Positions 1,173 through 32,500 are shown, numbered from the stretch's first letter. The stretch: DNA of 64,000 nucleotides from Escherichia coli (GCA_005400705.1 GCA_005400705.1_4079.1), one strand, 5' to 3'. Translations and numbers: made by a program. Notes: generated from the sequence alone by a model not told the origin.

Positions 1173-1766
1173 ATGAAAAAGAATGAATTAGATGAAGCAA
1201 TTAAAGGTTTATCTAATGTATGTTTTAGTGGCGGGGCAGCAGGTGCTGACCGCCTTTTTTCTATCTATGCAAAAAATAATGGATTTGAAGTTATTAATTT
1301 TTCATTCAAAGGTCATGAGCATAGTGTAGATGAAAGTACTATATTAGAAATACCATCCAATATTCTATCTGATATTTCTATATTAAATCAACTAAACATT
1401 GCATGTTACTCGTTGCAGCGAAAAGTACCAAAGCCTGGTTCTTATGTTTACAACTTACTTGCAAGGAATAGTTATCAGATACTTAATACAGAAAGAATAT
1501 ATTGTATTGCAAATATCACATCACCAACTAAGGTAAGTGGTGGTACTGCATGGGCAGTACAGATGTATATGGATTCAGTTGAAAATCCTGAAATTTATTG
1601 TTATGATATGAATTCACGTTCAGTATTTTATTTCGATACAGTACTGAAAGAGTTCACACAAACATTCGTCGTTCCAGCACCACATGGTAACTGGACTGGT
1701 ATTGGTTCACGCAATGCCACCGAAAAACATATGGAACATTTTATTACATTTTTCAAGGAAGAATAA
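1173..1766 (+). CDS. Rossmann-like SLOG/DprA-like protein (putative nucleotide-binding or nucleotide-processing)
   Basis: 197-aa ORF with N-terminal glycine-rich loop FSGGAAGADRLF and later VSGGTAWAV, reminiscent of DprA/LOG/YpsA (SLOG) signatures; stop overlaps the td start (TAATG). Confidence 0.4.
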   Translation: MKKNELDEAIKGLSNVCFSGGAAGADRLFSIYAKNNGFEVINFSFKGHEHSVDESTILEIPSNILSDISILNQLNIACYSLQRKVPKPGSYVYNLLARNSYQILNTERIYCIANITSPTKVSGGTAWAVQMYMDSVENPEIYCYDMNSRSVFYFDTVLKEFTQTFVVPAPHGNWTGIGSRNATEKHMEHFITFFKEE

Positions 1767-2695
1767 TGAAACAACTACAAGAACTATATCAAAAAATTCT
1801 AGATGAAGGCGTAGAAAGCGTTGACCGTACTGGTGTTGGAACAATCAAACTTATCGGTCAACAAATGCGTTTTGACCTTAAAGATGGTTTCCCAGCAGTG
1901 ACGACAAAACGTCTAGCTTGGAAAGCAATGACTTCAGAATTACTATGGTTTATTGAAGGTTCCCATGATGAGCGTCGCCTTTGTGAAATTTTGCATGGAA
2001 CTCGTGATACAGAAAAGAAAACTATTTGGACAGATAATTACCTAAATCAAGGCGTTGCTCTTGGTTATACTGATGGTGAGTTAGGTCCAGTGTATGGTAA
2101 GCAATGGCGTGAATGGGAAGATTATAAATTTAGTTCCAGTACTGAAGAAATTCAAGAATTAAAAGATAAAGGATACAAAGTTATCGATTATACTGGATCG
2201 CATGGTGTTGTTATGAAACGTACAACTGACCAATTACAGGAACTAATCAAAGGTATAAAGTCCGATCCATATGGTCGTCGCCATATTCTAAGTGCATGGA
2301 ACGTTGGTGAGCTTGATGATATGACGTTACCACCTTGTCATAGCTTTGTACAATTTTGTGTAGTACAAGGGAAACTAAGCTGCATTCTACATCAAAGATC
2401 CGCTGATCTATTTTTGGGAGTTCCATTTAATATCAGTAGTTATTCACTACTAACTCATATGATTGCACAAATTACTGGTTTAGATGTTGGTGAATTTATT
2501 TGGAATGGTGGTGATTGTCACATTTATAAAAACCACGTTGAACAAGTAAAAGAACAACTACAGCGAAAACCTCGTGAATTACCTGAATTGTGGCTTGATC
2601 CTACAATTACTAATATTGAAGATTTCACTATGGATTCTTTTAAATTAGTGAATTACAACCCAATGCCAACAATTAAAGCACCTATGGCTGTATAA
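1766..2695 (+). CDS. td: thymidylate synthase
   Basis: 309-aa product with canonical ThyA motifs including catalytic LPPCH (TLPPCHSFVQF) and a T4 Td-like N-terminus; uninterrupted reading frame. Confidence 0.95.
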   Translation: MKQLQELYQKILDEGVESVDRTGVGTIKLIGQQMRFDLKDGFPAVTTKRLAWKAMTSELLWFIEGSHDERRLCEILHGTRDTEKKTIWTDNYLNQGVALGYTDGELGPVYGKQWREWEDYKFSSSTEEIQELKDKGYKVIDYTGSHGVVMKRTTDQLQELIKGIKSDPYGRRHILSAWNVGELDDMTLPPCHSFVQFCVVQGKLSCILHQRSADLFLGVPFNISSYSLLTHMIAQITGLDVGEFIWNGGDCHIYKNHVEQVKEQLQRKPRELPELWLDPTITNIEDFTMDSFKLVNYNPMPTIKAPMAV

Positions 2696-29500: not shown

Positions 29501-32500
29501 GTAATAGATTGAACTGAACCAAAGTCTGCACCAAATTTAGCATTTGCTGCACTTGGTGTACAAGAAATAAATTCACCCGTTACCAGAGAATTCTGACTCC
29601 AGATCACAAAATCTTTAGCAATAGTGTTCCAATCTTGTTGAGCACCACTATCATTTACATCTTCAAAAATCCAGCCATGTTCTTTAAGATATTCACCATA
29701 ACCACAAATAAAAGTATAAACTTCTTGGTAACTATTAAAAACTTTACCATATTCAATGGAAGCTTCAGATTTCCATTCGTTATAATGAACAACATTGCGG
29801 TTTTCTAATTTAAGAGTTACTTTTCTACCATTTTTCACTGGCAGTTTATATTTGAATTTAGCACCAACTAAATCATATCCATCAATCTGATATGCACTAC
29901 CATTCCAAGTAATTTTGATAGCACTCATTTGTTCATCACGAATATTATTCGAGCGAACAAGACCAATAGTTTGGTTTTCTTGTGAAATAAGACCAAATGA
30001 TTTAGCATTGAATGTTAGCTGATCTGCTTTAGTAAAACCACCAATTTTATGACCAACATTTATATAAGAAGAACGAACTACATCCCCATATTTGGTTGTA
30101 ATGTTTTTATTTTGATACATCAAATAATCACTAACAAACATTTGATAACCAATTGTTCTTGTGTTATTTTCACCATGAACTACAGTGTTTTTATCAAAAT
30201 TAATACGCTTACGTGTATCACCATAAAGGAATTGTGAACCATCAGTGAATACTTCTTTTAAATTGTCATTTCGGGTATCCCAAAAATAGTTAGCAAATTG
30301 TGCAGGTTTAGCTTTATACAAAAGTAGCATTTGGTCATATGCAAACAATGTAGTGTTCATGTATGTAAATTCCATGTCACCCATGTCACCATATGCCCAA
30401 GGTTCTGCTCTATGATTTAAAGAACCAGACACTAAACCTAAAATTTCAGGTGCAATATATTCAACAACACAAATATCAATACCGGAAGATGTTTTATTAC
30501 CAGTTTTTGTGATTTTAAATGGCTGTACACCAAATCTTTTATATTTGTCATACTGTCCACGGCGATCACCAGACAAAATAGTACCAGTACTACTATCTCC
30601 GATAGTGCCGTCGATATCCCATAGACCACTAGGAACTAAATCTCCTTGTTCATTCATAACAAGTGCTTCATATACATATACCACATCACTATCACGCTCA
30701 CCAACTTGAACAGCAGTTGGTTCATATTCTTGGTTCCACCAAGTTGGACGCTGTGAAAAGCCAAACATTTCCCACGGATGTGTTGCAGGGCGATATGTAC
30801 CATATTGGTCAGTATAAATTGCACGCCATGAACCACGAGCAGGAATTTCAGTACTTTGACCATTAACTACATAATAAGTGCCAGTATAGTTCCAAGTTCT
30901 CCAATTGTTAGGATCATAATCATGTGTACTATTACTGATACCATTAGTTGCGGTGAAGTTAATGTATCCACGTAGTAATAATGTTTGTTTCTCTTCAGCA
31001 CTATATTCAGTTTTAGTGAAATATGGTGTAGGGAAAAGGTCATCACTATTCAATACTGGTACGTAATCAACATCTTTGAATTTATTATCAATACTATTAA
31101 AAATTCTATTTTCTAATTCATATACAACATCATCCATTTTATCAACACCATTGATAACACGGTATGCTTTGGAAATAATACCAGTATGACTGATGTTATA
31201 ACAGCTTGGTTTACTACCAGCAGTGAGGAATGTCGCTTTTTCTGGTACATATGCTTGAAGAATACCTAAGAACTGTGGTGTTGGTGGTATAAATGCACGA
31301 ATGAATCCAGAAGTACTTCCAACATTATCATAATAGAATGGGAATGAACTATCACGTCCCATATTAATAGTAGTTAAAATTGCATCAACAATGTTTGCAG
31401 CACTATTTTGTAAAAAGTCTGATGGATTTTCATCATACATACGAAGCATTTGTGTATTAAATTTATTAATGAATCTAAAATATTCAGATTGCATAAACAT
31501 AGTTGCTTCAAACAAATCAATATCTTCATTTGCAGTATGTGCCATCAATGGAAGCATAGATGCTTCATTTTGGATAATTTTAGTACCTACGCCATTATTA
31601 ACCAATCCTTTAGCCAAACGTTCTTCATAGTCATTGAAATCATCAGAAGAACCACGTGTAATGTTCTTTTGAATAATATCCTGAAAATGTAAAGTGTAGT
31701 CACCTTGGTTAATGTATATAATATTAGAATTATATGGGTTATTTTGTAGGTTGATTGGAACTTCATATGCACCTAATTCTTTATTAGGAGTTACAGTACT
31801 GCTATAAGTTCTGATTTGAATAACAGAATCTTCATCCAAATCTACAGTACTATCTAGAGTGATGCTTTGTACTTGACCTTTTGAAACATTTTTGGTATAT
31901 TTGGACACATCAACACCATCAACCACAACTTCAATAATATCAGAATCATTATCTAAAACTTTTTGTGCCAATTCGAATGTATGGTCATATTTTACAATCT
32001 GAACACCATCACCAGTAATTGGATGCCAATCTAGATAAGTTTCACGGTCAGCTTTATAGTACTGATATGTTCTATCAACTTCAATAACATATGCATACAT
32101 ACCATCAACTGGTTCTTTAAAAACTTCCATATCATAAACAGTACTGAATACACGATACATATCAGTACGTTGGACTTGTGGAGTTTGTTTTACAAATTGT
32201 TTAGAGTACTCTTCTGAACGAACCCAATCGGTTTGAAGATTCATTTCATTATTTTCATCAATAATGTTATAATAGTATAAACCATCAATTTCAACTTCTT
32301 TCCCAAGATGGTCATAGGTATAACGTTGGGATTGTAAAAAGTTTTCATAAATGTAATAATTATAATCACCAAGTTCAATGTTATATCCATATACACTATC
32401 AGTTGCATAGTTGTAATTTATTTTAAAACCAAACAACTCTGAACCTTTAAAGTTACTTGATGGATATGTAGTACTGTTGTCAAGTTTGATACCATTACGA

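Follow-up and report, generated by a model that had tools for sequence, protein, structure and literature searches.

A SLOG gene coupled to thymidylate synthase

We analysed an open reading frame (ORF) at positions 1173–1766, on the plus strand, of a 64,000-nucleotide (nt) stretch of DNA referred to here as the window. The ORF, which we call the SLOG gene (gp567 of phage 121Q), was present as an earlier sequence-only reading had described it and encodes 197 amino acids, including the two glycine-rich strings on which that reading relied, SGGAAGADRL (residues 19–28) and SGGTAWAV (residues 122–129). Its coupling to the thymidylate synthase gene td was also borne out. The Shine–Dalgarno sequence of td, AAGGAAG (1755–1761), sits within the 3′ end of the SLOG gene, and the TAA stop codon (1764–1766) shares one base with the td ATG (1766–1768), so that the translational coupling signal, as read from the sequence, spans 1755–1768 on the plus strand. 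The neighbour itself is a genuine thymidylate synthase of 309 amino acids (1766–2695, plus strand; 121Q gp568), which matched Pfam PF00303 with an E value of 7.7e-102 and PHROG 160 with an E value of 3e-116.

The window is 99.2–99.6% identical to Escherichia phages 121Q, phAPEC6 and SP27, which identifies its source, as judged from sequence, as a Rak2-like jumbo myovirus (Asteriusvirus, 121Q type, approximately 350 kb) and not as a T4-type genome in the strict sense, the setting that the earlier reading had assumed. The SLOG gene is the third of four tightly packed plus-strand genes that lie between two terminators. A hairpin resembling an intrinsic terminator (165–190; an 11-bp stem with 5 GC pairs, then a T run) stands at the end of the upstream N4 gp25-like gene (121Q gene 564) and forms the upstream boundary of the transcription unit. 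After it, and before the first gene of the unit, lies a putative sigma-70-like promoter with an extended −10 element (203–230, GGGACA-16 nt-TG-TATAAT; with the TG and 10 of 12 consensus positions matched); the call is based on consensus similarity only, in a region in which the number of such sites is not above that in shuffled sequences. The first gene (250–510; 121Q gp565, phrog_13789) encodes an acidic protein of 86 amino acids with an isoelectric point (pI) of 4.2, and the second (513–1169; 121Q gp566, phrog_15894) encodes a protein of 218 amino acids and stops 3 nt ahead of the SLOG start codon. A strong intrinsic terminator (2698–2727; a 13-bp stem with 5 GC pairs and a T run) ends the unit after td.

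In RaK2, GAP32 and Serratia phage BF, the 218-residue gene likewise precedes the SLOG gene, and the 86-residue and 218-residue genes are syntenic and stand downstream of N4 gp24-like and gp25-like genes. The td product is longer than the 266-position Pfam profile, with approximately 40 extra residues, and is of equal length in RaK2 and GAP32. We take the extra residues to follow the GKQWR motif, as placed by eye against E. coli ThyA.

Fold and chain order of the SLOG protein

We found that the ORF almost certainly encodes a SLOG-superfamily Rossmannoid domain of the YpsA/DprA branch, and the sequence-only call of a SLOG/DprA-like Rossmann protein was therefore correct. Profile hidden Markov model (HMM) and structure searches both pointed to SLOG, with no confident match to an unrelated family. 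The protein matched PHROG 768 (‘DprA-like DNA recombination-mediator protein’, named by remote homology rather than by assay) with an E value of 1.3e-26, aligning residues 4–161 to positions 23–181 of the 191-position profile. Several Pfam matches fell below threshold. YAcAr/DUF2493 (PF10686) reached 20.2 bits over residues 6–44 (E value of 5e-4; gathering threshold of 28.2 bits) and weakly matched 15 of 47 family members, and DprA (PF02481; gathering threshold of 29.6 bits) matched 6 of the 47 at E values of 0.008 or higher but not the query itself. For cpYpsA (PF12694; gathering threshold of 26.2 bits), two members scored 19.5 bits (P0251) and 17.5 bits (P0261), and the query had no match at E ≤ 1. 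Scans of the SLOG protein against NCBIfam and PADLOC gave no match.

An AlphaFold2 model based on a 47-sequence alignment (predicted local distance difference test score of 97.1, predicted template modelling score of 0.92) has a three-layer alpha/beta Rossmannoid fold with SLOG members as its closest structural neighbours. The glycine-rich nucleotide-binding loops that follow the core strands, a hallmark of SLOG domains, are present and 98–100% conserved among 290 family sequences aligned to the family HMM. Foldseek ranked the structure 3imk first, with no other credible match, and 3imk also gave the best sequential structural alignment. PDB sequence searches with the protein, the family profile and two divergent members returned only chance-level matches and no link to 3imk.

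The model also indicates a rearranged chain order. A single helix (residues 3–11) precedes the strand at residues 16–19 that carries the SGGAxGxD loop, and the C terminus consists of a strand (174–178), the GIGSR loop and a helix (184–191). In DprA, YpsA and LOG, the first strand-loop carries G-[ST]-R and the second SGxxGx[DE]. As modelled, the SLOG protein is circularly permuted: the first strand-loop, G-S-R, with its helix, has moved to the C terminus, which is the arrangement of the ‘Circularly permutated YpsA SLOG family’ (PF12694). Such a permutation fits 3imk as the best sequential match, and 3imk is presumably a PF12694 structure, that family having formerly been named MoCo_carrier. When residues 168–197 were moved to the front and the protein was rescanned, the YAcAr match was unchanged and neither YpsA nor DprA gained a match.

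These features set the family apart from each of its relatives. It shares its permutation with cpYpsA and 3imk (a ‘putative molybdenum carrier protein’ of Syntrophus aciditrophicus), but the query does not match PF12694, two members reach only 17–19 bits against the required 26.2, and 3imk is not linked to it at the sequence level. YpsA (DUF1273) and YAcAr proteins resemble it in their GxD/E signature, in the weak YAcAr matches and as small standalone phage proteins predicted to bind nucleotide ligands. However, the SLOG protein misses the YAcAr threshold (20.2 against 28.2 bits) and is approximately 60 residues longer than YAcAr, whereas relative to YpsA it is permuted and has no GpsB or cell-division context. 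In DprA/Smf and ShosA, the G-S-R motif lies before the SGxAxGxD strand rather than at the C terminus. DprA also differs in its SAM and DML1/winged-helix domains, which are lacking in this single 197-residue domain, and in its partners, which are competence or RecA genes instead of genes for a deoxynucleoside monophosphate (dNMP) kinase or thymidylate synthase. Moreover, the score against the Pfam DprA model is below threshold, the SLOG protein is acidic, and its H48, R83, Q102 and W127 are invariant extras. Compared with the nucleotide 5′-monophosphate phosphoribohydrolases LOG and PpnN, the catalytic glutamate is replaced, the chain order is permuted and there is no Pfam Lysine_decarbox match.

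Conserved pocket motifs

Four motifs stand out in the 290-sequence alignment, all encoded on the plus strand. The first loop, S19-G-G-A-x-G24-x-D26 (1227–1250), is 98–100% conserved and contains the GxD of the YpsA clade (G24 99%, D26 100%), whose signature is a GxD/E in the loop and helix that follow the second core strand (PMC6459960). A helix motif, L95-x-x-R98-N99-x-x-Q102 (1455–1478), corresponds to DprA motif 2 (L95 99%, R98 100%, N99 95% with a further 3% aspartate, Q102 99%). The third glycine-rich loop, G123-G-T125-A-W127-A128 (1539–1556), has G123, G124 and T125 at approximately 100% and W127 at 98%, and the C-terminal strand-loop, G176-I-G178-S179-R180 (1698–1712), is a displaced DprA motif 1 (G178 100%, serine or threonine at 179 99%, R180 98%). 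By residue, G20, D26, R98, T125 and G178 are 100% conserved, G123 and G124 more than 99%, S19, G21, A22, G24, Q102, W127, A128 and R180 98–99%, F45, R83 and N99 95–96%, and H48 89%.

In the complex of Helicobacter pylori DprA with single-stranded DNA (ssDNA), the motifs ‘G-S/T/A-R’ (Gly50–Arg52) and ‘F/L/Y-x-x-R-N/D’ (Phe140–Asn144), which identify a DprA domain, build a small pocket that takes up one thymine base; the R-N pair, together with a third-loop glycine, holds the base, and the arginine of G-S-R acts as a gate (PMC3950713). The SLOG family has the second of these motifs as L95-L-A/R-R98-N99, and the first is nearly invariant (G178, S/T179, R180) but C-terminal, not at the DprA position. 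The LOG motif PGGxGTxxE is absent: the corresponding segment reads S-G-G-T125-A-W127-A128-V-Q, with tryptophan (98%) and alanine (99%) at the glutamate positions, and the SLOG protein had no match to Pfam Lysine_decarbox. With the catalytic glutamate missing, we set aside LOG-type catalysis. The equivalent pocket of LOG enzymes holds a nucleoside 5′-monophosphate. Taken together, the conserved residues suggest that the family may have a one-nucleotide pocket of the DprA/YpsA type that has been adapted to a specific ligand.

A large family of small standalone proteins

Searching with the SLOG protein, we found homologues in 86 phage records by tblastn (22 at 95% identity or more) and 106 homologues in a word-indexed search. 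A profile built from 47 homologues gave 449 matches, and when 1.84 billion representatives were searched exhaustively by HMM, 2,726 matched at E ≤ 1e-3, of which 747 reached E ≤ 1e-30; the family thus numbers no fewer than 2,700 clusters at 50% identity. Because homologues occur in the 86 phage records and among the 2,726 profile-search representatives, sequence comparison identifies the ORF at 1173–1766 as a real gene and not a chance reading frame. Nearly all family members are standalone proteins of 175–210 amino acids, and many carry a Tudor/SH3-like C-terminal extension. They are found in many jumbo and T4-related phages, within virion proteins of N4-like and crAss-like phages, and in Flavobacteriaceae. 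The net charge of the family is approximately zero (median pI of 6.95), and the SLOG protein of the window is a soluble, single-domain, acidic protein (pI of 5.75).

The labels given to the SLOG gene conflict across near-identical phages. Besides records that call it ‘hypothetical’ or ‘DprA-like’, the ph0011 record (OP557969.1, 149,754–150,341) calls it a ‘DUF2493 domain-containing protein’, and the CRJP21 record (OQ708376.1, 143,639–144,229) calls it a ‘long tail fiber proximal subunit’, which is clearly wrong.

Pairing with dNMP kinase or thymidylate synthase in phages

We surveyed gene neighbourhoods at 79 IMG/VR loci, 18 of them Rak2-like and 61 others, using home-made HMMs. Thymidylate synthase lay downstream in the 18 Rak2-like loci. 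A T4 gp1-like dNMP kinase gene was immediately upstream on the same strand in 32 of the 79, often with a 4-nt ATGA overlap, 240–330 bp upstream in a further 6, directly downstream in 2 and 1.3–3.3 kb upstream in 7, leaving 14 loci with neither enzyme. The kinase gene was therefore no more than 330 bp from the SLOG gene in 40 of the 61 non-Rak2 viral loci. In Atu_ph07 (where the kinase was recognized by a home-made HMM), in Phosso and in several metagenomic contigs, the SLOG gene lies between the kinase and tail sheath genes. The kinase–SLOG pair is kept both in loci with inverted flanking genes (sheath and gp13) and in loci where the two genes of the pair have swapped places.

Four Rak2-like genera share the order N4 gp24-like ATPase, gp25-like gene, a small ORF, an ORF of approximately 218 amino acids, in some cases one of approximately 100, SLOG, in some cases one of approximately 115, and td. 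This shared SLOG–td arrangement supports the coupling to thymidylate synthase. In 121Q, the dNMP kinase gene (gp550) stands directly ahead of the tail sheath gene without a SLOG gene; in the Rak2 lineage, SLOG is therefore found beside td, a different dNMP-level enzyme.

The loci with neither enzyme have a mix of replication and repair genes, namely UvsW, DNA ligase with a metallophosphoesterase, a PD-(D/E)XK nuclease and gp46/47, and no single recurrent partner. Upstream of some kinase–SLOG pairs are sporadic NAD-related or ribosyl-related genes (locus L016, 1408–2909; L017, 3456–3959; L002, 1603–3273), which encode a HAD hydrolase with PRTase_3, a KptA-type RNA 2′-phosphotransferase and an NAD synthetase and bear on the NAD/ADP-ribose hypothesis considered below.

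Fusion proteins and a bacterial branch

Some family members are part of larger proteins. In the virion RNA polymerase of the N4-like Klebsiella phage Pylas (L006, 4001–4492), a SLOG domain occupies approximately residues 980–1144, before vRNAP_dom_2 (from residue 1599), so that Pylas injects the domain together with its DNA. The virion-type protein gp38 of the crAss-like phage cr113_1 (4,329 amino acids; L005, 1–4786) has a complete SLOG copy at its C-terminal end. The last 1,594 codons of this gene contain 18 in-frame TAG codons, with TAG read as a sense codon, and RefSeq names the entire giant protein ‘DprA-like DNA recombination-mediator protein’. A 2,942-residue protein (P0245) has SLOG adjoining a NADAR domain; a polyvalent protein of 4,050 residues (P0280) has SprT-like, ART-PolyVal, SF1 helicase and DUF7831 domains followed by SLOG; and one family member is fused to a histidine phosphatase. 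Among 289 family proteins, home-made HMMs and P-loop patterns detected no fusion with dNMP kinase or thymidylate synthase.

Scanning prokaryotes, with each species represented by one genome, we found 29 loci, mostly chromosomal and in Flavobacterium, Paenimyroides and Myroides, at approximately 30% identity. At 21 of the bacterial loci, SLOG is followed, directly or after an ORF of 68–82 amino acids, by a regulator of approximately 300 amino acids with WYL and WCX domains (HTH-WYL-WCX), and this pair is kept across at least four different surrounding contexts (L099–L120). The core context is a MiaB-like gene on the minus strand, SLOG, WYL, topoisomerase I and an arginase-like gene (for example, L104, 4986–9129); others include a PD-(D/E)XK nuclease. 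Regulators of this WYL type sense ligands or ssDNA, and dprA–topA synteny is common in bacteria. Our literature searches found no description of the SLOG–WYL pair.

Dihydrofolate reductase is encoded elsewhere

In T4, the dihydrofolate reductase gene frd is adjacent to td, and the sequence-only reading had expected dihydrofolate reductase next to td here as well. That expectation fails, as phages of the 121Q type carry a normal dihydrofolate reductase approximately 100 kb from td. In 121Q it is gene 42 (30,689–31,207), a canonical enzyme that adjoins RNase H. Searching with E. coli FolA located dihydrofolate reductase genes in RaK2, fEgEco12, Turkey5 and pEa_SNUABM_12, far from td, and the fEgEco12 enzyme as query found 121Q gene 42 at 84% identity and a counterpart in every relative. 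In RaK2, dihydrofolate reductase (gp148), dNMP kinase (gp040) and dTMP synthase (gp059) are separate genes (PMC3622015). No dihydrofolate reductase gene was found within the window.

With the enzyme encoded elsewhere in the genome, the SLOG protein is no stand-in for it. A non-homologous replacement for dihydrofolate reductase, or for another folate-cycle enzyme, in the slot of T4 frd would have position in its favour, namely translational coupling to td. In the unrelated jumbo phage RsoM2USA, moreover, a different small SLOG gene overlaps a dihydrofolate reductase gene. Against such a replacement, the canonical enzyme exists in 121Q and all relatives, the SLOG protein has no similarity to dihydrofolate reductase (PF00186 or the R67-type fold) or a folate enzyme in Pfam, PDB sequence or fold searches, it lacks an NADPH-type motif order, and the partner in most of the family is dNMP kinase, not thymidylate synthase. 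We therefore regard the replacement as vanishingly improbable and effectively refuted. The suggestion of a modified nucleotide pool found no support either: td has an ordinary thymidylate synthase signature in Pfam, its residues having also been compared by eye with E. coli ThyA, and we set aside a modified-base pathway for this reason.

The SLOG gene of Ralstonia phage RsoM2USA (L098, 3619–4555; MG752970.1, 121,156–122,092) is a true Pfam YAcAr/DUF2493 member (46.7 bits) that overlaps the start of the dihydrofolate reductase gene (PF00186, E value of 9.5e-37) by 8 nt and is followed by an XPD/DEAD_2-like helicase gene, all three being annotated as ‘hypothetical’. Here a second SLOG family, distinct from that of gp567, is translationally coupled to an enzyme of the thymidylate cycle.

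A possible role at the dNMP node

How might the SLOG protein act? The reading that we tentatively prefer is that the three glycine-rich loops (SGGAxGxD, GGTxWA and GIG[ST]R) and the LxxRN helix would build one small pocket, which would bind, and possibly process, one ligand of the (deoxy)nucleoside-5′-phosphate type. Alongside thymidylate synthase and dNMP kinase, the protein would then take part in phage DNA-precursor synthesis at the dNMP node, either as a processing or sanitizing enzyme or as a binding or channelling factor. Such a (d)NMP-type ligand and dNMP link are possible, at somewhat under even chances, because the commonest and best quantified association of the family is with two dNMP-handling enzymes, because the pocket has more specific polar residues than that of DprA, because the proteins are not basic, with a net charge near zero unlike that of a dedicated DNA binder, and because one fusion partner is a phosphomonoesterase. 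More specifically, the family could be an unrecognized, dNMP-directed accessory of phage deoxynucleotide synthesis acting alongside dNMP kinase and thymidylate synthase, whether as a remover of damaged or unwanted dNMPs or as an adaptor whose DprA-type base pocket tethers precursor enzymes to ssDNA at the fork; this fuller proposal is speculative, and we consider it rather unlikely as it stands.

Several observations weigh against a role at the dNMP node. The kinase-linked loci are confined to a single broad group of T4-related myoviruses, and much of the adjacency could for this reason be inherited synteny rather than the result of selection. When loci were clustered at 60% identity, 13–14 of the 26 clusters were linked to the kinase, 2 to thymidylate synthase and 10 to neither. 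SLOG directly abuts td only in the 121Q and RaK2 types, and in 16 of the 18 Rak2-like loci a small ORF of approximately 100 amino acids lies between the two. The contexts with helicase, virion RNA polymerase, ligase, UvsW and gp46/47, the ART and NADAR domains of the polyvalent proteins, and the bacterial WYL regulator and topoisomerase I all point elsewhere. Without the catalytic glutamate, LOG N-glycosidase chemistry cannot simply be assumed, and our literature searches found no experimental work on any family member.

One alternative is that the protein is a DprA-like ssDNA binder whose pocket grips one base, serving as a recombination mediator, an ssDNA protector or a fork adaptor, or possibly holding precursor enzymes on the DNA, a function proposed for T4 gp32. 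Both ssDNA-binding motifs of H. pylori DprA are nearly invariant in the family, the PHROG and RefSeq names are already DprA-like, and the contexts just listed, from the helicase of P0280 and the Pylas polymerase as fusion partners to UvsW, DNA ligase, PD-(D/E)XK nuclease and gp46/47 as neighbours, would suit such a role, as would the Tudor/SH3-like extension of many members and the bacterial pairing with a WYL regulator followed by topoisomerase I. RaK2 is without a UvsY homologue (PMC3622015), and Iyer et al. proposed that DprA/SLOG proteins of jumbo phages are extra ssDNA binders (PMC7824862). However, DprA binding needs a dimer and at least approximately 20 nt of ssDNA (PMC3950713), the single domain here is without the SAM or DML1 domains of DprA, and the Pfam DprA model remains below threshold. 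The protein is acidic and the family net neutral; the invariant H48, R83, Q102 and W127, not found in DprA, suggest a more specific ligand; and ssDNA binding leaves unexplained why the gene is so tightly paired with those for dNMP kinase or thymidylate synthase. We consider this explanation unlikely, although not negligible.

A NAD+/ADP-ribose role in counter-defence, in which the pocket binds or cleaves an NAD+-derived immune signal (such as cyclic ADP-ribose isomers) or removes ADP-ribosyl adducts, appears more doubtful still. Iyer, Burroughs and Aravind predicted that YpsA-like SLOG domains in viruses process NAD+/ADP-ribose signals (PMC9503650). The fusions fit this prediction, in that SLOG adjoins NADAR in P0245, accompanies an ART-PolyVal ADP-ribosyltransferase, SprT and a helicase in P0280, and is part of injected giants, namely the N4-like virion RNA polymerase and the 4,329-residue crAss-like protein. 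KptA, NAD synthetase and phosphoribosyltransferase genes are occasional neighbours, and a putative early-type promoter precedes the unit. Such fusions are sporadic, though, with a few among the 150 representatives listed, and the dominant contexts of standalone members are dNMP kinase and thymidylate synthase rather than NAD or ADP-ribose genes; PADLOC gave no match, and literature searches found no anti-defence role for the family. Gene neighbourhoods favour a nucleotide-processing enzyme, whereas the injected polyvalent fusions favour an anti-defence signal binder.

Implications

The superfamily, a catalogued PHROG and an earlier survey of viral YpsA-like SLOG domains are already known. What appears to be new is the permuted architecture of the family, its size and missing coverage by curated models, its pairing with dNMP kinase and thymidylate synthase, and the bacterial SLOG–WYL pair. 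Neither PMC7824862 nor PMC9503650 mentions dNMP kinase or thymidylate synthase, and we found no description of either pairing in the searchable literature. Nothing in the analysis overturns expectations. The database labels ‘DprA-like recombination mediator’ and ‘hypothetical’ rest on remote homology alone, and the pairing with dNMP kinase and thymidylate synthase yields a concrete, testable hypothesis. A protein acting on the dNMP pool would be a new player in the classic T4-type pathway of deoxynucleoside triphosphate synthesis, and one that binds ssDNA or an ADP-ribose signal would represent a compact new recombination or counter-defence module. Either way, the idea of a dihydrofolate reductase replacement can be dropped.

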